The notes under the pieces: generated by a model
The model's database searches: none
What the model was told of the DNA's origin: nothing
The model's input: the letters and a program-made list of their open reading frames with translations, nothing else
In this document: in pieces, positions 1,021 through 58,914 of the stretch
Layout: every line of letters starts with the position of its first letter
Position numbering within the stretch: the first letter of the stretch is position 1
DNA from: a virus
IMG/VR virus record: IMGVR_UViG_3300010430_002753
Coordinates: 1 to 64,000 of that record
DNA: 64,000 bases
Direction: 5' to 3' (one strand)
Program-made: the position numbers and the translations under genes

Positions 1021-1383
1021 CTACCTCTTATTTAATAATTTTAAATTTCTATCAATATTCATAATTTTATTTGATTTTACTATCCAATCTTCTTTTGAAT
1101 ATTTTATATCAGTTATCCAATACCCTTCAAGTTCTATTTCTCCAGATTTAAAATACCAAATTTCAGCAGGTCCATTTAATCTATTATATTCATCTTTTGA
1201 ATTATAATAAAATTCACGACTTATTTCTCCAGATTTATAATACCAAATTACTGTTGGTCCATCTTCTCTATGACGTTTTCTATTTGAATTATAATAACAT
1301 TCATTAATTATTTTAGTTTCCTCTGCATCATAATAATATATCGTTTTATAATTTCCGTTTTTTAATTCAATTCTTTTTGACAT
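1021..1383 (-). CDS. HRxxGPA-repeat protein with C-terminal NIxRNLKLLNK tag
   Basis: HREDGPT and NRLNGPA repeats; ends NIDRNLKLLNKR. Confidence 0.85.
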   Translation of the reverse strand: MSKRIELKNGNYKTIYYYDAEETKIINECYYNSNRKRHREDGPTVIWYYKSGEISREFYYNSKDEYNRLNGPAEIWYFKSGEIELEGYWITDIKYSKEDWIVKSNKIMNIDRNLKLLNKR

Positions 1384-1385
1384 AA

Positions 1386-1757
1386 TTAAACCTTATTTAA
1401 TAATTTTAAATTTCTATTTATGTTTTTAATTTTAATAACTTCTGGATGTTTATCAAAATCTTCTTTTGAAAATGATCTATCGTGTATATAATAGTCTTTA
1501 CTTTTAATAATATGATTATTATCTTTTATATATTTAATTATAGCAGGGCCGTCTAATCTATGTATTCTATTATTTATATGAAACATCTCCTTTATAATCA
1601 TACCAGATTCGTTATACCAAATTACAGCTGGTCCATCTTCTCTATGAGTAACGTTATTTTTATTATAATATATTATATATGAAATAACATTATCTAAATT
1701 ATTAAAATAAAATAAGTCTTTATAACAGCCATTTTCTAATTTAACTCGTGTGTTCAT
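1386..1757 (-). CDS. HRxxGPA-repeat protein with C-terminal tag
   Basis: HREDGPA, HRLDGPA; ends NINRNLKLLNKV. Confidence 0.85.
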   Translation of the reverse strand: MNTRVKLENGCYKDLFYFNNLDNVISYIIYYNKNNVTHREDGPAVIWYNESGMIIKEMFHINNRIHRLDGPAIIKYIKDNNHIIKSKDYYIHDRSFSKEDFDKHPEVIKIKNINRNLKLLNKV

Positions 1758-1759
1758 AA

Positions 1760-2128
1760 TTAAACCTTATTTAAAAGTTTTAAATTTCTTTCTATATTTA
1801 ATTTTTTATCAAACTCTTCTTTTGTATAATGTTTATAATTTAACCAATACTCTTCATTTTCTATTTCGCCAGAATATGTATATTTAGTTCTAGCTGGACC
1901 ATCTTCTCTATGTAGACACCCGTTTATCCAATAATACACACTACTTACTTTTCCTGTTTCATGACTATAATAGATAGTTGCTGGTTTATTTAATCTATGA
2001 TATTCTTTTTCTTTATTGTAATAAGTTTCAGTTGAAATTTTGTTGTTAGCAAAACGTAGTATCTCTTTATAACAGCCATTTTCTAATTCTATTCTTTCTA
2101 TTTTTTTGAAACGATGATCATAAATCAT
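1760..2128 (-). CDS. HRxxGPA-repeat protein with C-terminal tag
   Basis: HRLNKPA, HREDGPA; ends NIERNLKLLNKV. Confidence 0.85.
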   Translation of the reverse strand: MIYDHRFKKIERIELENGCYKEILRFANNKISTETYYNKEKEYHRLNKPATIYYSHETGKVSSVYYWINGCLHREDGPARTKYTYSGEIENEEYWLNYKHYTKEEFDKKLNIERNLKLLNKV

Positions 2129-2141
2129 TATTTTTCCTTAA

Positions 2142-2564
2142 TTAAATCTTATTTAATAACTTTAAATTTTTGTTTATATTTATTAATTTTTTACTTTTTA
2201 TTTCCCATAGTTCTTTTGAATATTTTTTTCCATATAACCAATAATCTCTATGACTATATGTAGGTTGAATATAAGCTGGTCCATCTTCTCTATGCAATTT
2301 TCCATTATAAAAATAAAATATTGCATAATATTTATAAATGCCATCTTTCCAATCATCTGAATCAAAATATGTAATCAGTGCTGGTTTATTTTTTCTATGA
2401 TATATATTATCTTTGTTTATATACATTATACATTTTTTTCCAACATCTTTATTATAAAAACCAACTATTTTAGTTAGTTGTTCACCTTCTTCAATAATTG
2501 ATTCTTTTGTAATAATATTATTTTCTATTACATTTAAAATAAATTCTTTTTGTTCGCGCAACAT
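2142..2564 (-). CDS. HRxxGPA-repeat protein with C-terminal tag
   Basis: HRKNKPA, HREDGPA; ends NINKNLKLLNKI. Confidence 0.85.
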   Translation of the reverse strand: MLREQKEFILNVIENNIITKESIIEEGEQLTKIVGFYNKDVGKKCIMYINKDNIYHRKNKPALITYFDSDDWKDGIYKYYAIFYFYNGKLHREDGPAYIQPTYSHRDYWLYGKKYSKELWEIKSKKLININKNLKLLNKI

Positions 2565-2849
2565 TTATTTTGCCAATTCTCTAATTAATATTTTTTTACC
2601 ATCTTCACTGAATCTAGCAATATAATGAATATCTTCGTGAATAAATAAAATACATTCTTCTGGTAATATATCAGTAACATATTCAGTAGATCTTTTTTCA
2701 ATTTCAACTTCAATTTGTGTTAATAAAGAATTTTTAATTTGTTCATCGAATTCAATTCCATTATCTACTGATACTATTTTCTCTGTTGAACAACCAACTA
2801 TTAATAAAACTCCTAATATCAATACTACTATTAAAAATAAGTTTCTCAT
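2565..2849 (-). CDS. putative lipoprotein
   Basis: Start moved to the ATG after GGAGGTTATT (the longer ORF runs through a promoter); MRNLFLIVVLILGVLLIVG-C lipobox-like signal. Confidence 0.65.
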   Translation of the reverse strand: MRNLFLIVVLILGVLLIVGCSTEKIVSVDNGIEFDEQIKNSLLTQIEVEIEKRSTEYVTDILPEECILFIHEDIHYIARFSEDGKKILIRELAK

Positions 2850-2880
2850 AATAACCTCCAAGTTATTTTTTATTATTAAA

Positions 2881-2920
2881 TACAATATAAATAACTTTAA
2901 AATATTTGTCAACTAAAAAA
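2881..2920 (-). promoter_or_regulatory. sigma70-like early promoter (repeat family)
   Basis: TTTTTTAG-TTGACA-17-TATATT-GTA. Confidence 0.85.
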
Positions 2921-3181
2921 TTATTTTTTATTTAATAATTTTAAGTTTCTATTTATATTTATTATTTTATAGAACTCTTCTTTTGTATAATATTTATTGT
3001 TTATAATATAATCTTCACTTTCTATTTCTCCAGAACTATAATACCAAATTTCTGCCGGTCCATTTAATCTATTATATTCATCTTTTGAATTATAATAATA
3101 TTCACGGTATATTATAGTTTCTTCTGTGTCATAATATATTATTTCTTTATAATTTCCATTTTTTAATTCTATTCTTTTCAT
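2921..3181 (-). CDS. HRxxGPA-repeat protein with C-terminal tag
   Basis: MKRIELKNGNYK start, NRLNGPA; ends NINRNLKLLNKK. Confidence 0.85.
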   Translation of the reverse strand: MKRIELKNGNYKEIIYYDTEETIIYREYYYNSKDEYNRLNGPAEIWYYSSGEIESEDYIINNKYYTKEEFYKIININRNLKLLNKK

Positions 3182-3183
3182 AA

Positions 3184-3543
3184 TTAAATAACCTTATTTA
3201 ATAACTTTAAATTTCTTTCTATATTTATTTTTTTAATAACTTTAGGTTGTTTATAATATTCTTCTTTTGAATATTCTTTTCCATCTATACCATAACGCTC
3301 ACCTTCTATTTTTCCAAATCTATTATACCAAATCATTGCTGGTCCATCTAATCTATGAGTAGTTCCTTTTATAAAATAAAGTTTACTTTCAATTTTTCCA
3401 TTTTCAAAATATATAATATCTGCTGGTCCGTCTAATCTATGATATAACTCATTTGAATCATAATATGTTATATTTTTTATTTTGGTTTTTTCGTCAAAAT
3501 AATTTATTATTTTATAGCAACCATTTTCTAATTTTACTCTCAT
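3184..3543 (-). CDS. HRxxGPA-repeat protein with C-terminal tag
   Basis: 2x HRLDGPA; ends NIERNLKLLNKVI. Confidence 0.85.
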   Translation of the reverse strand: MRVKLENGCYKIINYFDEKTKIKNITYYDSNELYHRLDGPADIIYFENGKIESKLYFIKGTTHRLDGPAMIWYNRFGKIEGERYGIDGKEYSKEEYYKQPKVIKKINIERNLKLLNKVI

Positions 3544-3788: not shown

Positions 3789-4157
3789 TTATTTCTTATT
3801 TAATAATTTTAAATTTCTATCTATATTTATTTTTTTATCAAATTCTTCTTTTGAATATTCAACGTTATGTATATAATATTCTTCACCACATATAATTCCA
3901 TTTCGTCTATAATGTATAGATGCAGGCCCGTTTAATCTATGTCTTTTTCCGTTTATACAATATATTTTTCTACTAATAATATTGTTTGCGTAATTTGCGT
4001 AATACCAAATTATTGCACCATCATTAATACGGTGCAAATCACCTTTTTTATTATAATATTCTTCACAAACTAATATTGAATGATTACCATATTCGCCATA
4101 AGTTTCATAAAAAACCAATTTAAAACAATCATTTTCTAATTCAATTCTTTTTGACAT
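3789..4157 (-). CDS. HRxxGPA-repeat protein with C-terminal tag
   Basis: HRINDGA, HRLNGPA; ends NIDRNLKLLNKK. Confidence 0.85.
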   Translation of the reverse strand: MSKRIELENDCFKLVFYETYGEYGNHSILVCEEYYNKKGDLHRINDGAIIWYYANYANNIISRKIYCINGKRHRLNGPASIHYRRNGIICGEEYYIHNVEYSKEEFDKKINIDRNLKLLNKK

Positions 4158-5292: not shown

Positions 5293-5634
5293 TTATTTTT
5301 TATTTAAAAGTTTTAAATTTCTTTTTATATTTATTTTTTTATTAAACTCTTCTTTTGAATATTTTATATCATTTATCCAATAATATTCATCTTCTATTTC
5401 TCCAGATTTATAATAACAAATACCAGCAGGTCCATCTAATCTATGAATTTTTCCATTTATACAATAATATTCTTTGTCTATTTCCACAGTTTTAAAATAC
5501 CAAATTACTGCAGGTCCATTTAATCTATGATATTTTCCGTTTAACATATATAATTCATTACTTATTTTAGTTTCTCCTGAATCATAATAATATATTTCTT
5601 TATAACATCCATTTTCTAATTCAATTCTTTTCAT
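5293..5634 (-). CDS. HRxxGPA-repeat protein with C-terminal tag
   Basis: HRLNGPA, HRLDGPA; ends NIKRNLKLLNKK. Confidence 0.85.
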   Translation of the reverse strand: MKRIELENGCYKEIYYYDSGETKISNELYMLNGKYHRLNGPAVIWYFKTVEIDKEYYCINGKIHRLDGPAGICYYKSGEIEDEYYWINDIKYSKEEFNKKINIKRNLKLLNKK

Positions 5635-5636
5635 AA

Positions 5637-5888
5637 CTAAACCTTATTTAAAAGTTTTAAATTTCTATTTATATTTACAGCTTTAATATATTCATCATAA
5701 ATTTCTTCTACATGTTTATATTTTAATTGTATAGCATATGAATTAACTAATCCATTCATTAAATATCTTATAATTACATATTCATAAGAATAATCAATAT
5801 CTACAATTTCAATTTTAGTATTATGTTTATGTAATTTATTTAAATAATATTTTATATATCCATTCGTATATCTATTATTGTTCATCAT
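5637..5888 (-). CDS. hypothetical protein (no GPA repeat) carrying the C-terminal tag
   Basis: Unrelated body; ends AVNINRNLKLLNKV. Confidence 0.75.
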   Translation of the reverse strand: MMNNNRYTNGYIKYYLNKLHKHNTKIEIVDIDYSYEYVIIRYLMNGLVNSYAIQLKYKHVEEIYDEYIKAVNINRNLKLLNKV

Positions 5889-12458: not shown

Positions 12459-12719
12459 TTATTTTTTATTTAACAATTTTAGGTTTCTTTCTATATTAAT
12501 TTTTTTTTCAAATTCTTCTTTTGAATATTCTTTTCCGTTTACCAAATAATCTTCATATTGTATTTCTCCAGATTCATAATACCAAATTATAGCTGGACCG
12601 TCTACTCTATGAAAATAATATTTTGAATTATAATACTGTTTACTTTGTATTTTAGTTTCCTCTGTGTCGTAATACTGTATTATTTTATAATTTCCATTTT
12701 TTAATTCTATTCTTTTCAT
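12459..12719 (-). CDS. HRxxGPA-repeat protein with C-terminal tag
   Basis: HRVDGPA; ends NIERNLKLLNKK. Confidence 0.85.
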   Translation of the reverse strand: MKRIELKNGNYKIIQYYDTEETKIQSKQYYNSKYYFHRVDGPAIIWYYESGEIQYEDYLVNGKEYSKEEFEKKINIERNLKLLNKK

Positions 12720-12883: not shown

Positions 12884-13927
12884 TTAAAGTTCATAATACT
12901 CTTCTTGAATTTCATATAACAACTCTTCTAATTTATTATAATTTGGTTTCTTTGGTAATACGTGATTACCACTATTTTGTATTTCTCTAAACTCTTTTTT
13001 TAATTTAGAAATATGTTCTTGTAATTCTTCAATAGGCATATTACCGGTTTTACATCTCATAATGATATCTTTTTGTTTTAACGGAAATTTAAGATCCCCT
13101 GTTTTTAACATTTCAATACCTTCAACTAGTAAACGAATTACATGACTTCCAAACTTATAATCATAACCTCTTTCAAATACTAATTGCTTTCTATAACCAG
13201 AAGCTTTACTAAATCTATTTTTAATATTATCTAATGCAGTTTTAATTTGGATATTAGCACCCATACTTAAATCACCAATAAAATAAATATCTTCAAATCT
13301 TTTATCTTCATGTTGTTTCTGACCAAATTTACCAATCTTTTCACTATCTAATTGTAATCTCAAAGATACTAATTTATCATTATGAAAACAATTTTTTGTT
13401 TCAATTTGATATTCAATAAAAGTAATAAATTTTTTAAATGCTTCATAATTGTTAGATTTGACATACATTTTCTTTTCTTGACTAATAGCATATCCAATAA
13501 ATCTTTCTACTAATCCTTCATGTAAAAATAAATTTCTATTATCTAATAATAGTTTTCCCCATTTATTACAATATATAATATTTTCAGGATTTACAAATAA
13601 CATTTCTATGATATTAGGATTATTTTCAGCAGCTAGTTTTACAAACTTTTTTAAACTATAAAATTTTCTATCTATGGCATCTTTACTATTTCTACCATTA
13701 TCTTTTTTGTCTTTAATAGATAAATCAATTTCATTTAAACTTTCATGTCTATAAAAAGGTGATAAAATTTGTCTAGTAGTTGGCAATACAAATTCAATTG
13801 GTTCTACAAATACTCCACCATAATCTACATCTGATTCAGGTGTTTCTAAACCGTATAAATTACTTCCTGTTTTTATTTCTAATATCTTATTTTTTTCTAC
13901 TATCTCTTTTCTTTCTTCAAAATTCAT
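12884..13927 (-). CDS. Pol-beta-superfamily nucleotidyltransferase (YcgL/RlaP-like)
   Basis: GSNLYGLETPESDVDYGGVF, NPNIIEMLF, GYDYKFGSHVIRL. Confidence 0.8.
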   Translation of the reverse strand: MNFEERKEIVEKNKILEIKTGSNLYGLETPESDVDYGGVFVEPIEFVLPTTRQILSPFYRHESLNEIDLSIKDKKDNGRNSKDAIDRKFYSLKKFVKLAAENNPNIIEMLFVNPENIIYCNKWGKLLLDNRNLFLHEGLVERFIGYAISQEKKMYVKSNNYEAFKKFITFIEYQIETKNCFHNDKLVSLRLQLDSEKIGKFGQKQHEDKRFEDIYFIGDLSMGANIQIKTALDNIKNRFSKASGYRKQLVFERGYDYKFGSHVIRLLVEGIEMLKTGDLKFPLKQKDIIMRCKTGNMPIEELQEHISKLKKEFREIQNSGNHVLPKKPNYNKLEELLYEIQEEYYEL

Positions 13928-14998: not shown

Positions 14999-15337
14999 TT
15001 AAATCTCCTTTTCTTCTTTCAAACGTTGTCCGTTTATAAAATATAATTTAGAGATAATTTTATTATTTTTATAATGTATTATTGCAGGACCTTCTTGTCT
15101 ATGAAACTGTCCATATTTATCATAATAATGAATAAAATCTATTTTATTTAACAATTTATTTTTATATGAAATAAATTTATAACGTCCATTTTCTAATTTT
15201 ATATTTTTATGGAATATTTTAATATGTATAGGTATATAAAATAAATACATATTAAAAAATATATCTTTTTTAATCAAAATATATATCAATAAAATAAATA
15301 ATATACTAGAAATAAAACCAATGATAAATAATAACAT
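14999..15337 (-). CDS. membrane-anchored HRxxGPA protein lacking the C-terminal tag
   Basis: N-terminal TM helix, IKLENGRYK, HRQEGPA; ends KEEKEI. Confidence 0.75.
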   Translation of the reverse strand: MLLFIIGFISSILFILLIYILIKKDIFFNMYLFYIPIHIKIFHKNIKLENGRYKFISYKNKLLNKIDFIHYYDKYGQFHRQEGPAIIHYKNNKIISKLYFINGQRLKEEKEI

Positions 15338-16214: not shown

Positions 16215-16631
16215 TTATTTTTTATTTAATAATTTTAAATTCGTTTTTATATTTAATTCTTTTATTTTCTTTCTATTTATATAATTTTTATGTAATTGTT
16301 TTTTACATTGAATATATACTCCACCTTCTAAATTTATAAATAATCTGTATATGGTTAAGTTATAAAAATTTTCAAATCTATCTTCAGGTGTACAAAACTC
16401 TATTAATTCGTTTAACATAGAATCAAAATTTATTTCTGAATCTACTGTTTTAAATTTATAATCTATTGTAACTACTGGTTTACCATTTAAACCATAACTT
16501 GATTGACATTGTATTGTATTAAAAGTAAATGGTAATACATTATTCTCACAATATTCAGATAAATCACTAATAAACGGATATGTTATATCTTTAGAATTTT
16601 TAATAAACCGTCTTGCATATTGTCTAATCAT
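16215..16631 (-). CDS. hypothetical protein (no GPA repeat) carrying the C-terminal tag
   Basis: Ends ELNIKTNLKLLNKK. Confidence 0.75.
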   Translation of the reverse strand: MIRQYARRFIKNSKDITYPFISDLSEYCENNVLPFTFNTIQCQSSYGLNGKPVVTIDYKFKTVDSEINFDSMLNELIEFCTPEDRFENFYNLTIYRLFINLEGGVYIQCKKQLHKNYINRKKIKELNIKTNLKLLNKK

Positions 16632-21378: not shown

Positions 21379-22761
21379 TTATCTTTTTTGGTTATTATAC
21401 ATTTTTTTCTCTAAACTATCAGGTCCAAACATATTTGAAATTAAATCATCAATTGATATATATTCTTTTGCTACTTTATTATTTTGTTTATCAATATTTA
21501 TAACAGGTATTTCAGATTTTGCTTGTTTTACTGAACATGGTTCATAACCAAAATGTTCATTAATTAGTTTACATTGATTTACATTAGCAGTAATTCCAAT
21601 ACTATTTAAAAAATCATATGTATTATGAACTAATTCTGAAACGCAATTATATGTTTTTCCATCAATTGTCATATTCATATTAGTATCTAGTTGATCACTT
21701 TGTTTTACTTCTACTAAATAATGTTTTACACCTTTAATATTAATTGTTTGCATATGTTCTTCCTTATTTTTATTTATTTTTTTATTAAATTCTTCTTTTG
21801 TATATTCTTTACTGTTTATATAATATAATTCACTTATTATTTCTCCATCTTTATAATACCAAATTGAAGCTGGGCCGTCTAATCTATGAACTTCGTCTTT
21901 AGAATTATAATAACATTCATAATTTATTTTAGTTCTTTTATTATCAAAATAATTATAAATTTTATAATTTCCATTATCTAATAATTCTTTAGTTATATAA
22001 TCATCAAGTATTATTATATTATTTCGTTTATTAAGAGCAACAACTTCTTGTCTAGTATCAAACTCTTGTTTTAGATATGTTTTATTGTTTATCCAATAGT
22101 GTTCACCTATAATTTCTCCAGATTTTGTATACCAAATTGTTGCTGGACCATTAATTCTATGTCTTTTACCATTTTTATAAAATTCTAGTTTTTTAACAGT
22201 TTCACAATTTTTATAATATTTAATAACTGCTGGTTTATTTTTTCTATTAAACATATTATTATTGTTAAAATAATATTCACCAATAATTTTAGTTTTATCT
22301 TTATTTAAATATTTTGTTATTTTATAATTACCGTTTTCTAATAATTCTTTATCTTCTAATTCTTTATAATCTAATTGATTTATTTTTTTATTATTAACTT
22401 TATTATGCCATTCTTTTCTAGTTAATTTTTTACCATCTAAATAATATTCAGATAAGTTATAACCAATAAAAGCTGGGCCATTTTCTCTATGAAGTTTATC
22501 ATTAACATAATACCATTCAGCTATTACTTTATTTTTTTCATCATATAATATTTTTGCTGGACCTTGTTTTTTATCTAATTTATTTTTTCTAATCCATTGT
22601 TCTTCTGTATATCCATTTTCAAAAACAGATATTACAGCAGGTCCATTCTGCCTATCAATTTCTTTATTTTTATTATAATACGTTGTAACTGTGTAATCAG
22701 ATCCTTCTTCTACATATATAATTTTAAAACTTCCATTTTTAAAAGTTATAGTTTCAATCAT
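21379..22761 (-). CDS. multi-module HRxxGPA-repeat protein fused to an unrelated C-terminal domain
   Basis: Six GPA-type repeats in three modules; no tag; internal AAGGAAG-ATG at 21753. Confidence 0.8.
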   Translation of the reverse strand: MIETITFKNGSFKIIYVEEGSDYTVTTYYNKNKEIDRQNGPAVISVFENGYTEEQWIRKNKLDKKQGPAKILYDEKNKVIAEWYYVNDKLHRENGPAFIGYNLSEYYLDGKKLTRKEWHNKVNNKKINQLDYKELEDKELLENGNYKITKYLNKDKTKIIGEYYFNNNNMFNRKNKPAVIKYYKNCETVKKLEFYKNGKRHRINGPATIWYTKSGEIIGEHYWINNKTYLKQEFDTRQEVVALNKRNNIIILDDYITKELLDNGNYKIYNYFDNKRTKINYECYYNSKDEVHRLDGPASIWYYKDGEIISELYYINSKEYTKEEFNKKINKNKEEHMQTINIKGVKHYLVEVKQSDQLDTNMNMTIDGKTYNCVSELVHNTYDFLNSIGITANVNQCKLINEHFGYEPCSVKQAKSEIPVINIDKQNNKVAKEYISIDDLISNMFGPDSLEKKMYNNQKR

Positions 22762-22785
22762 AATAACCTCCAAGTCATTTATAAA

Positions 22786-26954: not shown

Positions 26955-27275
26955 TTATTTTTTATTTAATAATTTTAAATTTCTTTCTATATTTCTAAAT
27001 TTAATTACTTTTGGATGTTTATCAAATTCTTCTTTTATATAATTTATTCCATCTATAAAATAATATTTTATACCAATATAATTCTGTATTCTAAGTTCTT
27101 CTGTAATTGGAATATCGAACGGTGTATTTATTAATGCAGGCCCACTTAAATTATGTAAATGTTCTATAAAGATTGCTTGGATATCTTCATCATTATATAC
27201 ATAATCTATAAGTTCTTTGTCTGTTTTAAATTCATATTTAATTCCATAAAAATATGCAATAATATTTGTATTCAT
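26955..27275 (-). CDS. divergent HNLxGPA protein with C-terminal tag
   Basis: HNLSGPA; ends NIERNLKLLNKK. Confidence 0.8.
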   Translation of the reverse strand: MNTNIIAYFYGIKYEFKTDKELIDYVYNDEDIQAIFIEHLHNLSGPALINTPFDIPITEELRIQNYIGIKYYFIDGINYIKEEFDKHPKVIKFRNIERNLKLLNKK

Positions 27276-27582: not shown

Positions 27583-27614
27583 ATTATACATTACATAATT
27601 TTATTTGTCAACTA
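27583..27614 (-). promoter_or_regulatory. sigma70-like promoter overlapping a TAG stop
   Basis: TAG-TTGACA-17-TATAAT. Confidence 0.75.
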
Positions 27615-45747: not shown

Positions 45748-45817
45748 AAGATCTAATTTTTAATTTCTTAATCATTATAATTTGATTAAAGATTCTGTCA
45801 ACTAAAAAATTATTTTT
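45748..45817 (-). promoter_or_regulatory. promoter (copy of a ~70-bp direct repeat)
   Basis: TTGACA-16-TATAAT. Confidence 0.8.
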
Positions 45818-46172
45818 TATTTAATAATTTTAAATTTCTATTAATATTTCTAAATTTAATAACTTCTGGGCGTTTATAGAACTCTTCTTTTGAATAACTT
45901 TTACCATTGATATAATAATATGCATGTTCTATTTCTCCAGATCTATTATACCAAATCATTGCTGGTCCATTTAATCGGTGTCGTTTTCTATTTATACAAT
46001 ATTGCATAGCTTCTATTTTGCCAGATTTATAATATTTAATCTCTGCGGGACCATATAAATTGTGAATATAATCATTTTTGTTATAATACATATCATGCAT
46101 AATTTTAGTATCTTTATCATCATAATATACAATTCTTCTGTAATTACCATTTTCTAATTCAATTCTTTTCAT
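45810..46172 (-). CDS. HRxxGPA-repeat protein with C-terminal tag
   Basis: HNLYGPA, HRLNGPA; ends NINRNLKLLNKK. Confidence 0.85.
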   Translation of the reverse strand: MKRIELENGNYRRIVYYDDKDTKIMHDMYYNKNDYIHNLYGPAEIKYYKSGKIEAMQYCINRKRHRLNGPAMIWYNRSGEIEHAYYYINGKSYSKEEFYKRPEVIKFRNINRNLKLLNKK

Positions 46173-46199: not shown

Positions 46200-46709
46200 T
46201 TATTTTTTATTGATAAGTTTAATTCTATTTTCCATATAATCACAAAATTCAGCAAATCTACTATTAGGTGTAATATAACCATTAAAATCGTGTTGTAATA
46301 CTCCTAATTCAATAAATGCTACTATAAAATGATTAATATTTTTTGTTGAATCTCCATAAATATGATAACTTAATTCTTCGATTTTTGCGCCACCATTGTC
46401 AGAAATATATTCAATTATTCTTTTATAAAATGTTTCTTTTCTTCCACTATTAAATATTGGAGTATTAAACATAAATTTATTTTCATATTTAAATGGTGTT
46501 TGACTATTTATATTAATTTTTTTATTAAAAAATGATGTTAATTCATCTTTATCATAACCAATTTGTTTAAATTTATTTTCAATACAATTAAAGTTATTTG
46601 TTAAAGCATTAATTGCATTTTTTGCAGTTAATCCTAAATTTTTTTGTAAAAAAATTCTAGCTTTTGCAGGTTCAATCCAATTTCCAAAATCAATTTTTTT
46701 ATTTCTCAT
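46200..46709 (-). CDS. hypothetical protein with a possible C-terminal winged helix
   Basis: Start reset after GGAG; RIIEYISDNGGAKIEELS...FIELGVL. Confidence 0.55.
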   Translation of the reverse strand: MRNKKIDFGNWIEPAKARIFLQKNLGLTAKNAINALTNNFNCIENKFKQIGYDKDELTSFFNKKININSQTPFKYENKFMFNTPIFNSGRKETFYKRIIEYISDNGGAKIEELSYHIYGDSTKNINHFIVAFIELGVLQHDFNGYITPNSRFAEFCDYMENRIKLINKK

Positions 46710-46740
46710 AATCAACTCCAATATATTTTTTATTATTAAA

Positions 46741-46780
46741 TACAATATAACAAATACTAATAAATATGTCAACTAAAAAA
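46741..46780 (-). promoter_or_regulatory. sigma70-like early promoter
   Basis: TTTTTTAG-TTGACA-17-TATATT-GTA. Confidence 0.85.
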
Positions 46781-47081: not shown

Positions 47082-48710
<1,629 letters not shown>

Positions 48711-48733
48711 TTATACCTCTTTATTTATTTATT

Positions 48734-49597
48734 TTAAAATTCTAATTTCCATGTTTTTACGCCATGTAATTCTCTATCTTCCTTATAAAATGAATCTGTT
48801 GTATATATTTTATTGTAAAAAAATAATAACTTATAAGATCCCTTTGAAAAAATACCATGCGATACATATGTATATTTATTTTTAAAATTTAAAGTATCTA
48901 GTAATAAACCAGTATCTTCTAATGAACTCCCAGTTTCACATATATCATCAAAAACTATTGCTACACCATCACTATAATCTTTTACATCTGGTAATATATC
49001 AAAATCTAAATTTATAACTTCTTTAGTTTTAGAATCTCTAATTTTTTTCATACCGATAAATTTTATTTCTTTATCAGGATATCTTGATTCTGCAAATTGG
49101 CATAGTGAAGCTAATCTTGGAATAGCACCTTTATCAGGTGCTACAAAATATAATGTTTTAACTTCTTTATTTAAATTAATAATATCATTTATTGTCTTAT
49201 CAATATAAGTATAAGCATTTATTAAATTACAGTTTTCTAATGATTCATAAACTACTTGTGAATGTGGATCTAAAATACTAACAGATTCGTACATTTGAAA
49301 ATTTATTAATTCTGTCATAGCCTTTACTGAAAATGCTTCTCCTTCTACAAATATTTTATCTTGTCTTGCATATGGAAAATAAGGAATAGTTAAATGTATA
49401 TTTGGATAATTGTATTCTAAATTTCTTATAGCATTAGTAACTAATAATAATTTAAGTATATCATTAGAATTTCTTATATTTGCTATAATATTAATATCAA
49501 TATCATCTACATCAACTAATTCTGTTATACCACCAATATGGACTTCTCCACCATTAAATAGTTTTGATTTAACATCATCTAATTTAATATTTTTCAT
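48734..49597 (-). CDS. ribose-phosphate pyrophosphokinase-like protein
   Basis: [47 protein letters not shown]. Confidence 0.85.
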
Positions 49598-49599: not shown

Positions 49600-49869
49600 T
49601 TATTCCTTATTTAATAATTTTAAGTTTATATTTACGTTTATAATTTTATTTGATTCTATTATCCAATCTTCTTTTGAATATTCTATGCCGTTTAAAAAAT
49701 ATGTTTCATTTGTTTGTGTTTCAAATATGTTATAAAAAATTCTAGCTGGTCCATCTAATCTATGTATTTCATCTTCTAAATTATAATAAATTTCACTGTA
49801 TTTTGTTGTTTTTTCTATATCCCAATAATTTAATCTTTTATAATTTCCATTTTCTAATTCTATTTTCAT
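49600..49869 (-). CDS. HRxxGPA-repeat protein with C-terminal tag
   Basis: HRLDGPA; ends NVNINLKLLNKE. Confidence 0.85.
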   Translation of the reverse strand: MKIELENGNYKRLNYWDIEKTTKYSEIYYNLEDEIHRLDGPARIFYNIFETQTNETYFLNGIEYSKEDWIIESNKIINVNINLKLLNKE

Positions 49870-49871: not shown

Positions 49872-50357
49872 TTAAACCTTATTTAATAATCTTAAATTTC
49901 TTTGAATATTAACAGTTTTGATATCATTTTTATCTATTATTTTATCTTTATATTTATAAAATTCATAAGCTATATTTTTTTCATTATATACATTTTCATA
50001 ATCTTCGTAATCAATTATTTCTATACATACAGTATCTATAGAATTAATTATTTCATTATTTTCATTTAATTTTATTATAATATTATTGTAAGAATAAAAA
50101 TCATCTTCAGGTATATTTTCCTTAACCATAGAATTTTCAATACATATTGTATATTCATCAAATTCAATATGTATATTATTATTTTTATATTTTATAGTTC
50201 CAGTAAAATAATCACTATAATCCTCACAACTTAAAGAAAATCTATCTAAATAAGGAAGTTGTAATAATAATTGTAAACCTTTTTCTCCAATAAAATACTC
50301 TAAAATTTTATTTAAATCATTTATAAATTTTTCTTTAAATAATAATTCTTTCAACAT
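49872..50357 (-). CDS. acidic hypothetical protein (no GPA repeat) carrying the tag
   Basis: Ends TVNIQRNLRLLNKV. Confidence 0.75.
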   Translation of the reverse strand: MLKELLFKEKFINDLNKILEYFIGEKGLQLLLQLPYLDRFSLSCEDYSDYFTGTIKYKNNNIHIEFDEYTICIENSMVKENIPEDDFYSYNNIIIKLNENNEIINSIDTVCIEIIDYEDYENVYNEKNIAYEFYKYKDKIIDKNDIKTVNIQRNLRLLNKV

Positions 50358-50360: not shown

Positions 50361-50672
50361 TTAATCCTTTTGCAATAACCTTAAATTTCTTTGTATATTA
50401 AATTCTTTTTCTGAACATCTTGTATTATCAATATAAAAAGATTCACAAAATACTTTTTCATTTTCATCATACCAAATACAAGATGGACCGTTTAATCTAT
50501 GAACAAATCCATGTTTATTCCATTCTTTATAAGCTATATTATTATTACTGTCGTAACATATTTTACTTGGTTTATCATTATAAGAATGAAGAAAACCTTC
50601 TTCGTCTAATAATTCTAATCTAATCAATTTAAATAATTTATTATATATTTTTTTATATTTAATGTTTAACAT
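50361..50672 (-). CDS. HRxxGPA-repeat protein with C-terminal tag
   Basis: HSYNDKPS, HRLNGPS; ends NIQRNLRLLQKD. Confidence 0.8.
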   Translation of the reverse strand: MLNIKYKKIYNKLFKLIRLELLDEEGFLHSYNDKPSKICYDSNNNIAYKEWNKHGFVHRLNGPSCIWYDENEKVFCESFYIDNTRCSEKEFNIQRNLRLLQKD

Positions 50673-51437: not shown

Positions 51438-51468
51438 ATTATACATTTATATAAAATAATGTCAACTA
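51438..51468 (-). promoter_or_regulatory. promoter overlapping a TAG stop
   Basis: TAG-TTGACA-16-TATAAT. Confidence 0.7.
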
Positions 51469-51672
51469 CTTTTTATTTAATAGTCTAAAATTTCTATTAA
51501 TATTTCTTATGTTATTTAACTCTTTTTTAAAATCAAATAGTGGATTATACAATTCATAAAATGAAATAAATAATAAATCAATTGATTCATTTTCAATTTC
51601 ACAAAGTTGATCATCTGAATATTTTGATAGTCTATTTAGAACTGCTTTTAAGATTTTATTTTTATTTCTCAT
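51466..51672 (-). CDS. small hypothetical protein (no GPA repeat) carrying the tag
   Basis: Ends NINRNFRLLNKK. Confidence 0.7.
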   Translation of the reverse strand: MRNKNKILKAVLNRLSKYSDDQLCEIENESIDLLFISFYELYNPLFDFKKELNNIRNINRNFRLLNKK

Positions 51673-52136: not shown

Positions 52137-54173
52137 TTAAAATTTAATTTTTAATATTCTGTTAAAATTACCTTCAACTTTAACAACCAATTCATTTCTT
52201 TTAGTTTCTGAAAATCCTAAACCAGATAATTGATTATCAGAATATTCAGCTGACATTTTTGATCCTAATGCTTCAAATAATCGTTTATTTGACATTAACT
52301 CTTCATTTAAAAATTCATTATAGAATCCTCTAGTTCTAACAGGATTTTTACAATCTTTTAAAAAGAATAAATAATGTTTATTGCCCGTAGTTTTGTTATC
52401 CCAATAATTTGGACTATACATAATAGTTGAAACATCTACAAAATTATTAGTTTTAATATTCCAAATATCTTTTGAAGAACATGAACTCTCAATTAATGGT
52501 TCAACTATAAACTCACCATTTTTAAGTGTTACGTTTGCAACTTTTACAGTTTGGTCATTACGTAATTCTTTATTGTATGAAAATTCATAAATTTTTCCAT
52601 CAACTTCTAATTCAGCTGTAAATCCTGTTTTACCACCATTATGAGAATAATTATGAACTGATAATATATATTTTCCTTCATCCATTGTATGTTTATTTGG
52701 GAATGTTATGTTTTCAACTGCTCCATTTGGTGCTTGAGTATATGGTCGCCTTATATCAACATCTAATTGACCGCCATTGCTCATTTTACAAGGTTTTTTA
52801 TATGTATTAAACGCTATTGTTTTTCCACAAGGACATTTTAAATGAGCGTCAAAATCATTATTATTTTCATTATTGTCGTTCCACATTATACTATATCTAA
52901 AATCACCGTCAACTGCACCACCAAACTTTTTAACTAATTTTTTCATTGAACTATCTGCAATGTTACCATTGTAACTCCAACAAAAATTATTATCCCATTT
53001 AAACATTGATTTAGAATCTTTATTTTGTGGACCAATAAGACTAACTAAGTTATTAGTATGTTTACTATCTAATAATACTTTAATATTTTTAGATTTAGGC
53101 AAAACATCGTTAATAAAATCTGTAATACTAATTTCTTCAACTTTATCAAATTTCTTTGGATTTTCAGTTACTTCAGATTTTAATTCATCAAAAATAGATG
53201 TATTTACTTTTTCAACATCTCTATTAATATAAATAATATTATTTGCTGTGATATCATCCAATGTTGCAAATTTTCTTTGTAGTGAATCTTCAAAACCTAA
53301 TTCTTTAATTTGTTGTTCAGCTTTTTCTACCATCTTTTTTGTAAAAATTGCTTTAGGTCTTTTGTAATTTTCAGGTGCTACAACATTTTTTTCATATTTC
53401 CTTACTGCTTCATTTATATCTACATTATTTGACAAATCTATTAATAATGTTCCAATTGCAGAATTTCGTATTCTACATACTCTATTATCAATTGAATTTT
53501 TCCAATACCAATTATCATTTTCTACATGTAATTTTTTATATTTCAAAAATTCTTCAATTGAAATTTTATATTCAATACCTTTATATAATGATTTTTGTGC
53601 AATCAATTCTAAAATAGTTTCAGCTGCATCTACTGTTAATTCTGTCATTGCTCTTTGTAATAACTGTTTATTTTCTTTATGTTTACCTTGAATAGCTTCA
53701 ACAGAATATCGTAAATTGCTACTAACAAATTTATTAGGTAATACTAAGTTAAAATGGTCCCAAGAAATAGTTGAATTGTCTTCTAACAATTCTTTATTAT
53801 TTGCTGTTCCTAACTTATTATTAATTGTAATAAATTTATTATAAATTACTTTAGAATCAATATAATTTTTTAATTCTTTTGCAACAATATTGTATGGATA
53901 TTCTAAATCTTCAATATCCCAAATATTTTTAGTTTCATTATTTGAATCAATAATAACAATATTTCCAAAATGTTGAATAAATTGTCTACAACATGAACAA
54001 TCAAATTCTCTATGTTCTCTGTAGATCTCATTAGTTCCTTCTGGAAATGAATCAAGATATAAATTCCAAAATTTTTCTTTGTCAATATTTGCTAAAAATA
54101 AATGTTTTTCATCTTTAGAAATATTTGTAAATCTTTCTTGAACTGCTTGTTTAAACTTAATAAAATCTGCCAT
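52137..54173 (-). CDS. large conserved phage protein with a C-terminal YfaP/TerD-like domain
   Basis: FDCSCCRQF; DFDAH...GGQLDVD...AVENI; start after GGAGG. Confidence 0.65.
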   Translation of the reverse strand: MADFIKFKQAVQERFTNISKDEKHLFLANIDKEKFWNLYLDSFPEGTNEIYREHREFDCSCCRQFIQHFGNIVIIDSNNETKNIWDIEDLEYPYNIVAKELKNYIDSKVIYNKFITINNKLGTANNKELLEDNSTISWDHFNLVLPNKFVSSNLRYSVEAIQGKHKENKQLLQRAMTELTVDAAETILELIAQKSLYKGIEYKISIEEFLKYKKLHVENDNWYWKNSIDNRVCRIRNSAIGTLLIDLSNNVDINEAVRKYEKNVVAPENYKRPKAIFTKKMVEKAEQQIKELGFEDSLQRKFATLDDITANNIIYINRDVEKVNTSIFDELKSEVTENPKKFDKVEEISITDFINDVLPKSKNIKVLLDSKHTNNLVSLIGPQNKDSKSMFKWDNNFCWSYNGNIADSSMKKLVKKFGGAVDGDFRYSIMWNDNNENNNDFDAHLKCPCGKTIAFNTYKKPCKMSNGGQLDVDIRRPYTQAPNGAVENITFPNKHTMDEGKYILSVHNYSHNGGKTGFTAELEVDGKIYEFSYNKELRNDQTVKVANVTLKNGEFIVEPLIESSCSSKDIWNIKTNNFVDVSTIMYSPNYWDNKTTGNKHYLFFLKDCKNPVRTRGFYNEFLNEELMSNKRLFEALGSKMSAEYSDNQLSGLGFSETKRNELVVKVEGNFNRILKIKF

Positions 54174-54243
54174 GTTTTCCTCCACTATTTTTTAATTATT
54201 ACTAATTTAATATATCTATATTTTTTGTCAACTAAAAAATTAA

Positions 54244-54654: not shown

Positions 54655-54969
54655 TTATTTTTTATTTAATAACTTTAAGTTTCTTATAATATTTGCTTCT
54701 TTTTTCCAATCGTCAATATTATTAAAACGTATACCATTTATATAATACCATCCACCATATATTTCTCCAGATTCATAATATCTAATCTCAGCTGGTCCAT
54801 CTAATCTGTGTAATTTATTATTTATATAATATGTTTCAGTTCTTATTTCTCCAGATTCATTATACCAAATAGATGCTGGACCGTCAATTCTATGTTTTTT
54901 ACCATTTTTATAAAATTCTAGTTTTTTAACAGTTTCACCATTTTTATAATATTCAATTATTTCTTCCAC
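54655..54969 (-). CDS. HRxxGPA-repeat protein with C-terminal tag
   Basis: HRIDGPA, HRLDGPA; ends NIIRNLKLLNKK. Confidence 0.85.
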   Translation of the reverse strand: MEEIIEYYKNGETVKKLEFYKNGKKHRIDGPASIWYNESGEIRTETYYINNKLHRLDGPAEIRYYESGEIYGGWYYINGIRFNNIDDWKKEANIIRNLKLLNKK

Positions 54970-54971: not shown

Positions 54972-56372
54972 TTAAACCTTATTTAAAAGTTTTAATAATT
55001 CTTCTTTAGATATATTAGGATTTTCCATAAAAATATCTTCAGCTTTTCTCATATACTCACCAACTTTAATTCCTGGTTTAATATTAAATGTATTAATAAT
55101 ATCTTTTCCAGAAATAGGCATTGATACTGGTTCATGTTTTTCTTTTAGTTCAGCAATTCTTTTTGCTATATTCGGAACTTGATAAGGTAAACAATGTTCA
55201 GGTGCATGAGAAATATTATCTGCGTGAATAACTTCTAATAATTCTGTTAATAGATTACCTGATAATTTAATTAACTTTCTTATTGATTTATCTTTAATGT
55301 TTAAAGTTTCATTTCCCCATTGTTTAGTATGCATATGATTTTTGACAATAAAAGAAACACTATCAACTATTTCATTCTCATACTTTAATCTTTTTAAAAT
55401 ATCAATAACCATAGTTTCACTAAGAGTATTATGATCTATAAAACTATAATCATTTTTATCAGAATTCCATACTCTAGTTTTTAATTTACCAATATCATGT
55501 AATAACGCAGATAGTCTAACAACTAATTTATTTTCATTTTCTAGTATTGGTTTTTTAACAACGGCTTGTAATACGTCAAATAAATGATTAAATAAATCTG
55601 CAGAATGATATTCGTTTTGTTTAAAATCTATAGTTTCAATTAATTCTGGAATAATATAATTAATTAATCCAGTTTTTACTAAATAATATAATCCATTTAA
55701 ACAATTATCAGATAACATTATTTTTGTAAATTCACTATTAATTCTCTCTTTTGATAAAATTTCTGTAGATTTATAATTTCTAATTATTGAATCGTATACA
55801 TCTTTAGTTAATTTAAATCCTCTTGTAGAAAATCTAATAGCTCTTAACATTCTTAAAGGATCTTCTTTAAAAATACTATCAGGATCTGATGTTGTATTTA
55901 AAACATTATTACCTAAATCATTAATACCATTTCCAGTAAAATCTTCTAATTTATTTAAAGATATATTATACATTAAAGAATTAATAGTAAAATCTCTTCT
56001 TACTGCATCTTGCTCTATTGTTCCAAATTTAACTAATGGTTTTCTACTACCTTCTTCATACGCTTCTTGCCTACTCATCACAGATTCAAAATCTAAATCA
56101 CTATTAGGTAATCTAAAATTAGCAGTTCCAAATCTTCCAAAGATTACTGGATTGCTATCTTTTTTATATACTCCTAATTTCCTTGTTAAATATTCTGCTA
56201 ATGCAACACCACCCATTGGTAAATTTACAACAATATCAATATCTTTAATTTCTTTCTTTTTTAACAAAATATCTCTTACCGCGCCACCTACTATATATAC
56301 CTTATTCTCAAATTGAGTATCTATAATATGCTTATTGATACTTTCAGATATTTTAAATAATCTTTCTAACAT
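54972..56372 (-). CDS. cca: CCA-adding tRNA nucleotidyltransferase with HD domain
   Basis: VGGAVRD, DIDI, DAVRRDFTIN, EDPLRMLRAIRF, LLHDIGK. Confidence 0.9.
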   Translation of the reverse strand: MLERLFKISESINKHIIDTQFENKVYIVGGAVRDILLKKKEIKDIDIVVNLPMGGVALAEYLTRKLGVYKKDSNPVIFGRFGTANFRLPNSDLDFESVMSRQEAYEEGSRKPLVKFGTIEQDAVRRDFTINSLMYNISLNKLEDFTGNGINDLGNNVLNTTSDPDSIFKEDPLRMLRAIRFSTRGFKLTKDVYDSIIRNYKSTEILSKERINSEFTKIMLSDNCLNGLYYLVKTGLINYIIPELIETIDFKQNEYHSADLFNHLFDVLQAVVKKPILENENKLVVRLSALLHDIGKLKTRVWNSDKNDYSFIDHNTLSETMVIDILKRLKYENEIVDSVSFIVKNHMHTKQWGNETLNIKDKSIRKLIKLSGNLLTELLEVIHADNISHAPEHCLPYQVPNIAKRIAELKEKHEPVSMPISGKDIINTFNIKPGIKVGEYMRKAEDIFMENPNISKEELLKLLNKV

Positions 56373-56394
56373 ATAACCTCCAAATATTTATAAA

Positions 56395-56434: not shown

Positions 56435-56695
56435 TTATTTTTTATTTAATAATTTTAAATTTCTATTTATATTAATTAGTTTATTAAATTCTTCTTTTTC
56501 ATATTCGTTTCCATTTAAATAATAATATTCACTAATAATTCCACCATTTTTATGATGCCAAATTACAGTTGGCCCGTCTAATCTATGTCTTTCATCTTTT
56601 GAATTATAATAACATTCACTTTCTATTTTTTTTTCTTCTTTATCATAATATCTTATGTTTTTATAACAATCATTTCCTAATTTTATAATTTTCAT
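56435..56695 (-). CDS. HRxxGPA-repeat protein with C-terminal tag
   Basis: HRLDGPT; ends NINRNLKLLNKK. Confidence 0.85.
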   Translation of the reverse strand: MKIIKLGNDCYKNIRYYDKEEKKIESECYYNSKDERHRLDGPTVIWHHKNGGIISEYYYLNGNEYEKEEFNKLININRNLKLLNKK

Positions 56696-57019
56696 AATTA
56701 AACTTTATTTAACACAGCTATATTTATCTCTAAAATTTCGTTTTTCTTCATCACTCATTAATTTCCATTGTTTTTTTAATCTTTGATAATAAGATCTTTT
56801 ATCAATTGGATTATCATAATCAACAACTTTTTTTAAAAATTTTAATACTGTTTTTCTCATTATATACTTCCAATATTATTTGTTTTTATTGCCATCACGC
56901 TCTTTAAAGTTTTCACATTCATCTGTTTTAACTACAGTTCCTTTTTTACTTGATTTACAAGTATTATAATTTTCACATTTTCCACATTTAACTCTAAACA
57001 TATTTCTCATAGTATTCTC

Positions 57020-57283
57020 CTATTTTTTATTTAATAACTTTAAGTTTCTATTTATATTAATTTTTTTATTATACTCTTCTTTTGAATAACTTTTACCATT
57101 TATCCAATAATGTTCACCTCTTATTTCTCCAGATCTATAATACCAAATTCTAGCTGGTCCATCTAATCTATGAAGTTTTCTATTTATATAATACACTTCA
57201 CTTTCTATTTTAGTTTTCTCTACATCATGATAATATATTTTTTTATAACAACCGTTTTCTAATTCAATTCTTTTCATTTTCAT
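57020..57283 (-). CDS. HRxxGPA-repeat protein with C-terminal tag
   Basis: HRLDGPA; ends NINRNLKLLNKK. Confidence 0.85.
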   Translation of the reverse strand: MKMKRIELENGCYKKIYYHDVEKTKIESEVYYINRKLHRLDGPARIWYYRSGEIRGEHYWINGKSYSKEEYNKKININRNLKLLNKK

Positions 57284-57310
57284 AATTAAACCTCTCTTTT
57301 TATTTATAAA

Positions 57311-57350
57311 TACAATATAAATTATACATAAAAATATGTCAACTAAAAAA
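57311..57350 (-). promoter_or_regulatory. sigma70-like early promoter
   Basis: TTTTTTAG-TTGACA-17-TATATT-GTA. Confidence 0.85.
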
Positions 57351-57830
57351 TTATTTTTTATCTAATAACTTTAAATTTACTTGTATTTTAAAATCTTTTA
57401 AATTTTTACATCTAATTCTTTTTCCATTATAATAATATCGTATATAAGGATTAGGAGACATTGAATTATACGCATTCATATATGATTCTAAATCTAAAAC
57501 AGTAAATGCTGTATTTTCATCATATATAGTAGATGTAATCCAAGCTGGTCCGTTTATATTATGTAATTTTCCATCTTTATATTTTTTAAAACTAAATTCT
57601 GAACTTACAAAATTTACATAATTAATATATTCTTTTATAAATGTATTTACCAATTTTTTTGATGTCATTTGAATAATAATCTTAAACGTATCAAATACTA
57701 TCAAATAATTATAATCAGATCCGTAATAATCGTGTATTTCTAATTTTGTATCAATATCAAATAATTTAATGTGACCAATTTTTGATGCAGATTTTATAAT
57801 TTTATCTTTTAATTCTATTGATATTTTCAT
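57351..57830 (-). CDS. divergent HNxxGPA protein with a variant tag
   Basis: HNINGPA; ends KIQVNLKLLDKK. Confidence 0.75.
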   Translation of the reverse strand: MKISIELKDKIIKSASKIGHIKLFDIDTKLEIHDYYGSDYNYLIVFDTFKIIIQMTSKKLVNTFIKEYINYVNFVSSEFSFKKYKDGKLHNINGPAWITSTIYDENTAFTVLDLESYMNAYNSMSPNPYIRYYYNGKRIRCKNLKDFKIQVNLKLLDKK

Positions 57831-58120
57831 TTAATCTTCAAATGTTATAATAGGATTTCTGCAAGTATTATCTTTTTTATTTACTTTTAATTCTGCGTAC
57901 ACAGTTTTTATGTCTCTATTTTTGTTCCAATATTCTATAACAAAATTATAAGAATTGTCTATTTTTGATTTTATGCCTTTATAATTAATATTTTTTATAT
58001 TAAAAAAATCATCTTTAAACTTATCATACATAACTCTAATAAATGCACCATTAACGTTATCAGCAATTTCTTCTGTATTTACGCCACCACTTGTACTAAA
58101 TCTAAATTGTTGTTGCATAT

Positions 58121-58393
58121 TTACTCCTTATTTAATAACTTTAAATTTCTGTTTATATTAATTATTTTAATTACTTCTGAATGTTTATAGAATTCTTTTT
58201 TTGAATATTCTTTACCGTTTATCCAATAATCTTTATTATATATTTTACCAGATTTATAATACCAATTTTTAGCTGGTCCTTCTAATCTATGTGATTCACC
58301 ATTTGAATTATAATAATATTCATAATGAATTTTTCCATTTTCATGATAATGTATTTTTTTATAATTTCCATTTTCTAACTTAATTCTTTTCAT
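58121..58393 (-). CDS. HRxxGPA-repeat protein with C-terminal tag
   Basis: HRLEGPA; ends NINRNLKLLNKE. Confidence 0.85.
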   Translation of the reverse strand: MKRIKLENGNYKKIHYHENGKIHYEYYYNSNGESHRLEGPAKNWYYKSGKIYNKDYWINGKEYSKKEFYKHSEVIKIININRNLKLLNKE

Positions 58394-58395
58394 AA

Positions 58396-58914
58396 TTAAA
58401 CCTTATTTAATAACTTTAAATTTCTATTTATATTATATATTTTATCAAAATCTTTTTTATCTAACCCTCTTCCATGTAATTCATAATAATGTTCACAACA
58501 TAAAGCTTTTCTATATTTAAAATATTCTTCATTTATATATTTTTTAGGATCTATAATATATTCATTCCAAAAATAATTAGAATTCATACTATTAAAATAT
58601 ACTCTGCTTGGACCTAAATCATTATGATATTTACCATTTTTTAAAAATTTAATAGTAAATGGCGATATTACATATTTTAAATATTTTCCATATTTTAAAT
58701 GAATAATATTATTAATATATGTTGCCTTTGTATTTACTATTTCAATTTTAAATGTTTCAAAACATAATATATAATAACTTTTATCGGCACCTTCATATTG
58801 TTTTAATTTTCCTATTGGATCTTTAACATTTAATATAGAATAATTAATATAATTATCTTTAAAATGTTTTTCAAAATGTTTTTTTAATTCTTTTTGAGTA
58901 ATAATTTTTTTCAT
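58396..58914 (-). CDS. divergent HNxxGPS protein with C-terminal tag
   Basis: HNDLGPS; ends NINRNLKLLNKV; N-terminal part resembles 57351-57830 (F.TFKI.I). Confidence 0.8.
   Translation of the reverse strand: MKKIITQKELKKHFEKHFKDNYINYSILNVKDPIGKLKQYEGADKSYYILCFETFKIEIVNTKATYINNIIHLKYGKYLKYVISPFTIKFLKNGKYHNDLGPSRVYFNSMNSNYFWNEYIIDPKKYINEEYFKYRKALCCEHYYELHGRGLDKKDFDKIYNINRNLKLLNKV

Follow-up and report, generated by a model that had tools for sequence, protein, structure and literature searches.

Locus and Tagged Genes

The stretch of DNA analyzed here (hereafter, the window) comprises the first 64 kb, positions 1 to 64,000, of the 81,271-bp contig IMGVR_UViG_3300010430_002753, an IMG/VR record of an uncultured phage. 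Its GC content lies between 21% and 30%, almost every gene is encoded on the minus strand, and the gene content includes a chaperonin, a ribonucleotide reductase, and a vWA protein, the replication genes being located further along the contig. Between positions 1,021 and 58,914, 25 genes end in one and the same peptide, N-I-x-R-N-L-K-L-L-N-K-x-stop, hereafter referred to as the tag, whose 12 residues are nearly invariant. This tag is a terminal feature, is selected as a peptide, is found on different protein bodies, and is restricted to one group of phages; its properties lead us to propose, as discussed below, that it may be a handle through which diversified small proteins dock onto a common partner.

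When the tag core was searched for as the regular expression N-[LF]-[KRY]-L-[LI]-[NDQ]-K, the window yielded 25 matches, all on the minus strand and in frame inside open reading frames (ORFs), with none on the plus strand, and the same expression found no further tag in the remaining 17 kb of the contig. A single residue separates the core from the stop codon in 23 of the 25 cases, two residues do so in 3184–3543, and nine in 29252–29566, such that the initial annotation, which placed the motif nearly always within one or two residues of the stop, holds for 24 of the 25 carriers in the window. The final residue itself is variable (K, V, E, R, I, D, A, or F), the conserved part lying 1–11 residues upstream. 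At the nucleotide level, the 23-nt tag DNA with at most three mismatches is matched 24 times, always on the minus strand, when 0.13 matches are expected from shuffled sequences; 23 of these matches are tags and the remaining one (48721–48743) is an AT-rich look-alike, and the tag was never seen in another frame or on the plus strand.

A hidden Markov model (HMM) built from the repeat bodies alone matched 21 ORFs of the contig, 18 of them tagged and three untagged. Three more carriers display, by eye, one degenerate HNxxGP(A/S) unit each, and four have no HRxxGPA unit, which together reproduces the initial count of 21 carriers of the HRxxGPA type and four others. The 18 tagged MORN-variant paralogs retrieved by the HMM are located, on the minus strand like all other carriers, at 1021–1383 (120 amino acids [aa], ending in NIDRNLKLLNKR), 1386–1757 (123 aa, with a long HPEVIK linker), 1760–2128 (122 aa), 2142–2564 (140 aa, tag variant NINKNLKLLNKI), 3184–3543 (119 aa), 3789–4157 (122 aa), 5293–5634 (113 aa), 27612–27896 (94 aa, tag variant NLYLLNKE), 29252–29566 (104 aa, the tag reading through the GGGAG ribosome site of the next gene), 45810–46172 (120 aa), 49600–49869 (89 aa, tag variant NVNINLKLLNKE), 50361–50672 (103 aa, tag variant NLRLLQKD), 54655–54969 (104 aa, GTG start), and 58121–58393 (90 aa), to which are added four one-repeat members at 2921–3181 (86 aa, the stop being joined to a TTGACA promoter), 12459–12719 (86 aa), 56435–56695 (86 aa, with a promoter after the stop), and 57020–57283 (87 aa). 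The three carriers with a degenerate unit are found at 26955–27275 (106 aa, unit HNLSGPA, promoter after the stop), 57351–57830 (159 aa, unit HNINGPA, tag variant KIQVNLKLLDKK), and 58396–58914 (172 aa), the last two possessing an extra N-terminal domain that is related between them. Finally, the four carriers devoid of the unit are encoded at 5637–5888 (83 aa), 16215–16631 (138 aa, an orphan with the tag variant NIKTNLKLLNKK), 49872–50357 (161 aa), and 51466–51672 (68 aa, tag variant NFRLLNKK, promoter after the stop).

Conservation of the Tag at the Peptide Level

Codon variation was examined in the 18 tagged genes picked by the body-only profile, because selection of the genes by the motif itself had to be avoided; this body-defined set was used instead of a codon table pooled over all loci, which carries a bias from the regular expression and from the DNA pattern that served to recover related loci. 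Over the ten fixed codons of the tag, departures from the consensus fall 6, 4, and 32 times on codon positions 1, 2, and 3, respectively. Synonymous changes outnumber non-synonymous ones by 29 to 7, when 18.5% of changes are expected to be synonymous (binomial p = 1.2e-15), a count that ignores shared ancestry and AT mutation bias but whose effect is nonetheless large. The individual codons listed initially were all recovered, with Leu encoded by CTT in the gene at 1760, by CTA and TTG at 12459, by TTG at 27612 and 50361, and by CTA at 51466, and Asn by AAT or AAC. Furthermore, mean pairwise identity reaches 86% in the tag against 41% in the body (153 pairs), in line with the claim that the motif is better conserved than the proteins that carry it. 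As judged from these codons, selection on the tag acts at the peptide level and is strong, as had been proposed.

The DNA that surrounds the tags nevertheless invites another explanation, according to which the DNA or RNA is what is conserved, as an upstream element of a promoter, as the context of a ribosome site, or as a recombination joint between gene cassettes, the peptide being a by-product. Nine of the 25 tags are joined to a conserved TAATTTTTTAGTTGACA promoter (TTGACA-N17-TATATT), others carry the Shine–Dalgarno sequence of the next gene in their last codons, and the tag together with the conserved start of the following gene makes a long repeated junction; such junctions account for the choices between AAA and AAG and for those of the final codon. 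However, 16 tags have no promoter behind them, tag DNA never occurs in intergenic positions any more than out of frame or on the opposite strand, and the variation concentrates at third codon positions and at synonymous first positions of Leu codons, a pattern that a promoter upstream element, a ribosome site, or a recombination joint cannot explain. A sigma-70 UP element or a DNA repeat would be conserved irrespective of frame and codon position, when all copies here are in frame on a single strand and the changes follow the 6/4/32 distribution. This explanation is thus largely refuted by the codon pattern, and we give it very little credence.

The promoters themselves belong to a set of about 20 near-identical cassettes on the minus strand, which read TTTTTTAGTTGACA-N17-TATATT and continue with a conserved leader and a GAGG ribosome site, their −35 boxes lying, for example, at 2912, 5284, 10659, 15867, 22816, 26946, 30719, 45801, 46772, 54646, 56426, 57342, and 58967. 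Some of these cassettes are located 3′ of a hairpin-plus-T-run terminator, and nine stand directly 3′ of the stop codon of a tagged gene. In 29252–29290, the tag is followed by GGGAG where its relatives show a three-base codon and TAA; the two extra bases create a stronger ribosome site for the next gene, which has a GTG start, while pushing the stop out of frame.

Body Fold and C-Terminal Helix

Most carrier bodies consist of MORN-variant (YwqK-like) beta-hairpin repeats. AlphaFold2 (AF2) models of two members, 5293–5634 and 45810–46172, reached predicted local distance difference test (pLDDT) scores of 93.7 and 96.1, and both are predicted to fold into eight short hairpin strands, in a single-layer sheet of the MORN_2/YwqK type, followed by a C-terminal helix. 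The latter is a single helix of 19 residues (94–112) in the short-linker form represented by 5293–5634 and is split in two (95–100 and 102–118) in the long-linker form represented by 45810–46172. Fold searches returned 27 matches in BFVD at E ≤ 0.001, among which are MORN-repeat proteins from the giant viruses Harvfovirus, Hokovirus, Pithovirus, and Orpheovirus as well as proteins of uncultured tailed phages, and matches in the PDB were weak (Foldseek E > 0.1; VIA Z ≤ 7.6). The carriers thus share their body fold with the viral MORN multigene families and the YwqK-type MORN_2 proteins, one homologue being even named YwqK antitoxin component by the JGI, but they differ from these in that the best Pfam MORN_2 (PF07661) score, obtained for 54655–54969, is 16.6 bits against a gathering cut-off of 29.6, with no PF07661 match in the other carriers scanned, and in that the distant relatives examined lack this tail. 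Close homologues, all of them metagenomic, are tagged.

Ahead of the invariant part, the linker counts either 0 or 6–7 extra, Pro-containing residues, and the tag is the same in both cases. On a helical wheel, the invariant residues N1, I2, N5, L6, L8, L9, and N10 gather on one face of about 200 degrees, opposite the tolerant x3 and K7, with R4 and K11. The helix has a hydrophobic moment of 0.60, a net charge of +2 to +4, and a mean hydrophobicity of −0.47, so that the basic amphipathic helix initially proposed from residue spacing is supported by the AF2 models, the wheel, and the moment alike.

The extreme C-terminal position, the moment, and the charge of this helix would also suit an amphipathic membrane-targeting element such as those found at the ends of MinD or FtsA. 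Yet the polar Asn residues are invariant, the hydrophobic face is small and free of aromatics, and one carrier (described below) already possesses two transmembrane (TM) helices; helices that bind lipid in this way generally show little sequence conservation, and the wheel pattern is more specific than lipid binding requires. Membrane targeting therefore appears highly improbable to us. As for sortase or exosortase signals, which combine a motif, a hydrophobic TM stretch, and a basic cluster, the 12-residue tail has no hydrophobic stretch that would correspond.

A second possibility raised by this position is that the tail serves as a degron or timer at the C-terminus, by which a host or phage AAA+ protease would recognize the basic end and clear accessory proteins on schedule. 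The tag keeps its one-residue distance from the free end strictly, it forms a basic helix whose end has lower pLDDT, and known bacterial C-terminal degrons are short terminal tags too. In ssrA-like degrons, however, the last residues at the carboxyl end are the conserved ones, when here the very last residue varies freely; upstream of it, seven positions, three of them Asn, show no or almost no variation, more than engagement by a protease pore would need, and an eight-residue extension is tolerated in 29252–29566. We consequently hold a degron to be unlikely, albeit somewhat less so than a membrane anchor.

Distribution among Phages

Fishing with the tag DNA recovered one IMG/VR contig and 22 metagenome contigs, and no match among prokaryotes (one genome for each of 185,579 species), hence no lead to a host or a prophage. 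Three of the fished loci correspond to the phage of the window itself, and the others fall into about nine groups with 75–85% identity in the family genes. Over the contig and 26 loci, redundant loci included, 112 of 122 matches to the regular expression end one residue before the stop. At a larger scale, a profile of the last 30 residues was compared with 1,835,955,588 representative proteins and gave 32 matches at E ≤ 0.001, all at the C-terminus and all within this phage group; of 25 identifiers in this search, 21 are ORFs already extracted from the loci and four are close variants.

Outside the tagged family, the phages concerned appear to have little in common in their sampled parts. ORFs of at least 80 aa from seven related loci had no BLASTP match (E < 1e-4) to the non-family ORFs of the contig, and two tail-module proteins of similar size, compared directly, gave E = 0.24. 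Phages that look otherwise dissimilar in the parts sampled therefore keep the same tag.

In this related material, a different shared peptide was observed at the other end of proteins: in L002 9185–12421 and L003 about 1450–1660 (IMG/VR contig IMGVR_UViG_3300010430_000103), six small ORFs located between baseplate and tail genes of a related phage share the N-terminal sequence M-K-R-N-E-L-K-D-L-V-K-E-C-L-N-E-M-x-L-N-E, a peptide that in several of them ends in Leu-x-Glu. It is reminiscent of a T4-type capsid targeting leader with a protease site, and a regular expression found no copy of it in the contig of the window.

A Candidate Docking Handle on Diverse Bodies

To appraise the diversity of the carriers, the last 16 residues were removed from 80 unique tagged ORFs of at least 55 aa and the remainders were compared by BLAST. 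They formed 14 clusters, namely 65 MORN-like ORFs, one cluster of three, and 12 singletons; one singleton, 49872–50357, proved related to the cluster of three, with relatives in L005 and L025, and thereby defines a second small tagged family. Among the other bodies are a zinc-ribbon protein that has two TM helices, found in related metagenome contigs, whose tag is predicted to face the cytoplasm, small proteins of 57–83 aa without a repeat unit, and a 211-aa protein encoded in the baseplate operon of L002, two genes after gp25. In Pfam and PHROGs, the non-MORN bodies had no significant match except for a weak one of this 211-aa protein to the terminase large subunit (PHROG, E = 2e-5), which was set aside in view of the location of the gene within the baseplate operon; likewise, 16215–16631 has no homologue among 5.8 billion clusters. 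The tag hence sits on at least a dozen body types.

What these bodies have in common is longer than the tag. The full-length family profile meets the odd carriers from about profile position 84–87 of 120 onward, the alignment being limited to the last 44 residues of 5637–5888 and to the last 34 of 16215–16631, which delineates a shared module of about 35 residues made of the last strand and the basic amphipathic helix, its final 12 residues being the nearly invariant ones. The statement that these four carriers bear no similarity to the family is accordingly right for the HRxxGPA unit but not for their C-terminal 35 residues or so. In a similar vein, the modular docking signal originally envisaged is supported in part by the peptide-level conservation, the extreme C-terminal location, the differing N-terminal parts, and the helix, and is weakened by the greater length of the shared module.

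We tentatively favor, with a probability of about 0.45, the interpretation that the tail is a shared docking handle, that is, a portable C-terminal helix that would join diversified binders to one common partner. Under this scenario, this group of phages would equip a range of small cytoplasmic proteins with the roughly 35-residue module, the diverged MORN-variant bodies presumably being a set of binders with different targets; the hydrophobic stripe formed by Ile2, Leu6, and Leu9 together with Leu8, with the invariant Asn residues on its flanks, would fit into a groove on one conserved partner, and many binder or effector modules could thereby be gathered at a single site or machine. This proposal is motivated by the combination of the hydrophobic stripe and Asn residues, the variable linker, the fixed end, the unrelated bodies, and the invariance across divergent phages. 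Since phages without similarity in their other sampled genes keep the same tag, we favor as partner a component of the host or an accessory phage protein that is conserved.

Besides the reservations expressed above about the codon count, several points weigh against a docking role. No reader of the tag was found; the last two tag codons are also under DNA constraint (promoter abutment in nine genes, ribosome sites in others); and the carriers come from a few related marine-sediment phage populations, hence from few independent lineages. Other points speak at the same time for the main rival, which we rank second and deem possible though less probable: the helix would be an intrinsic structural or oligomerization element (capping or backbone) of the MORN-variant family, unequal recombination within the gene arrays would have generated the odd carriers as chimeras or as decayed relatives, and a separate addressing system would not exist. 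Indeed, the homology over about 35 residues, last strand included, places the tail within a small structural module and makes it more than a bare peptide. The helix directly follows the sheet, and the high pLDDT of the long-linker tag helix (97 and 85 over the last 20 residues) would also fit, in these models, a helix packed on its own sheet. Distant untagged MORN-like relatives end in short Leu/Lys-rich helices as well, two of the four odd carriers sit immediately upstream of a family gene and share its junction DNA, and 49872–50357 aligns weakly to the whole repeat profile (sequence E = 0.004; aligned stretch, 0.019). The tail may then be this lineage's own form of a helix intrinsic to the family, carried onto other genes by recombination.

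Conversely, a purely structural helix sits uneasily with a tag that is far more conserved than the sheet against which it would pack, with a linker of variable length that contains Pro, with the presence of the tag on the membrane zinc-ribbon protein and on proteins of 57–68 aa without a repeat unit, and with the three family members, including one of 464 aa, that have no tag. A prediction of the complex between 5293–5634 and 5637–5888, as a case of tag-to-tag pairing, scored 0.00 in a run without controls and weighs neither way. If the helix were structural only, the case would amount to a well-documented but ordinary lineage-specific gene family.

Comparison with Known Addressing Systems

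Very few systems are known in which diverse phage proteins share an addressing peptide, the T4 capsid targeting sequence (CTS) and the clamp-docking tails being examples. As outlined in PMC3012670, the CTS of the T4 internal proteins is a conserved N-terminal peptide, the sole feature common to diverse small proteins, several of them anti-defence, and it serves their loading into the prohead core. The tag resembles it in being one short conserved peptide on diverse small phage proteins, and this logic is the nearest one known. In T4, the CTS is cleaved off by the prohead protease. The tag differs in being C-terminal in 25 of 25 carriers, with no evident cleavage site.

The clamp-docking tails of T4 gp43, gp33, and gp55 and the bacterial clamp-binding motifs are short hydrophobic C-terminal motifs that share one pocket of one hub protein. 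The tag is similarly an extreme C-terminal motif on different proteins, but its carriers are dozens of tiny repeat proteins instead of replication or transcription factors. Its core N-L-K-L-L only loosely resembles the clamp-binding consensus, which is different, and no clamp gene was found with PHROGs among ten ORFs of the replication/tail region (63–77 kb of the contig, the genome being incomplete).

A further parallel, by analogy of logic alone, may be drawn with the poxvirus ankyrin-repeat proteins, which are variable repeat binders whose constant C-terminal F-box-like (PRANC) domain plugs into one host machine. The arrangement of variable repeats followed by a constant C-terminal piece is comparable, although the domains are unrelated and the poxvirus system is eukaryotic. 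One could accordingly speculate about an adaptor system, in which at least 25 MORN-type mini-binders would each capture a different host protein (e.g., defence nucleases or toxins) while their helices engage one reader, be it a protease, a chaperonin, or a phage hub. We see this elaborate version as rather improbable; were it true, it would constitute a bacterial-virus counterpart of the poxvirus repeat-plus-F-box receptors.

Literature searches, mostly at the level of listings and abstracts, turned up no account of the motif, nor any of tagged MORN families from phages, and a search with the motif string gave no match; the consulted portion of PMC7824862 contains no mention of MORN. Within that scope, the earlier remark that no described system matches the tag stands. 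The case is statistically solid and of a different kind, with a C-terminal, helical tag on many small binder-like proteins and several other bodies. If the tail is a docking handle, the 35-residue module would be a ready-made portable one, and its reader, if it exists, would show how such phages organize dozens of accessory proteins.

Untagged Relatives and Genomic Setting

Untagged members of the repeat family provide a useful counterpoint. The 464-aa multi-repeat protein encoded at 21379–22773 (minus strand) is the top match of the body profile (E = 1e-66) and adjoins a 724-aa vWA protein (phrog_2426) at 22875–25049. The 112-aa member at 14999–15337 (minus strand) stops just short of the helix start. 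At the beginning of the contig, 176–436 matches the repeat profile without a tag, and a second frame just downstream reads another HRLNGPA repeat, which gives it the look of a family member that has shifted frame or is decaying.

Two other ends on the minus strand are doubtful. A 190-aa protein at 46200–46772 ends in ENRIKLINKK, possibly a decayed tag. The CCA-adding enzyme at 54972–56372, which ends in SKEELLKLLNKV, was first taken to carry a truncated tag, yet it agrees with the tag only in its six C-terminal residues and in the junction DNA; SKEELL is a native feature of this enzyme family, and because distant homologues end in NISKEELLSLVK, the similarity to the tag is mostly native.

This enzyme belongs to a large tRNA/RNA repair kit, encoded at 442–1014, 12884–13927, 25366–25893, 27901–28701, and 54972–56372, that also includes an HD-domain protein, an RlaP-type nucleotidyltransferase, the HAD domain of “Swiss Army Knife” RNA repair proteins, and a Thg1-like tRNA-His guanylyltransferase, along with the 21 tRNA genes of the contig (38752–45242). 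Such a kit suggests that host attack on tRNAs takes place during infection.

With regard to the phage itself, the stretch is contained only in marine-sediment metagenome runs, two of DNA and none of RNA among those listed. Structural genes used as queries found no close relative at the DNA level among 50,697 phage records, and no head protease, portal, or capsid gene was recognized in the contig. The only strong tie of the contig to cultured phages is a 682-aa protein of unknown function at 52137–54185 (phrog_1735, E = 3e-240), which is found in 552 large-phage records at less than 60% identity, including phages of Bacillus, Salmonella, Klebsiella, and Caulobacter. Lastly, a GroEL-type chaperonin (Cpn60_TCP1, E = 2.5e-78), with no co-chaperonin gene evident beside it, is encoded at 47082–48704 and has tagged genes on both flanks.

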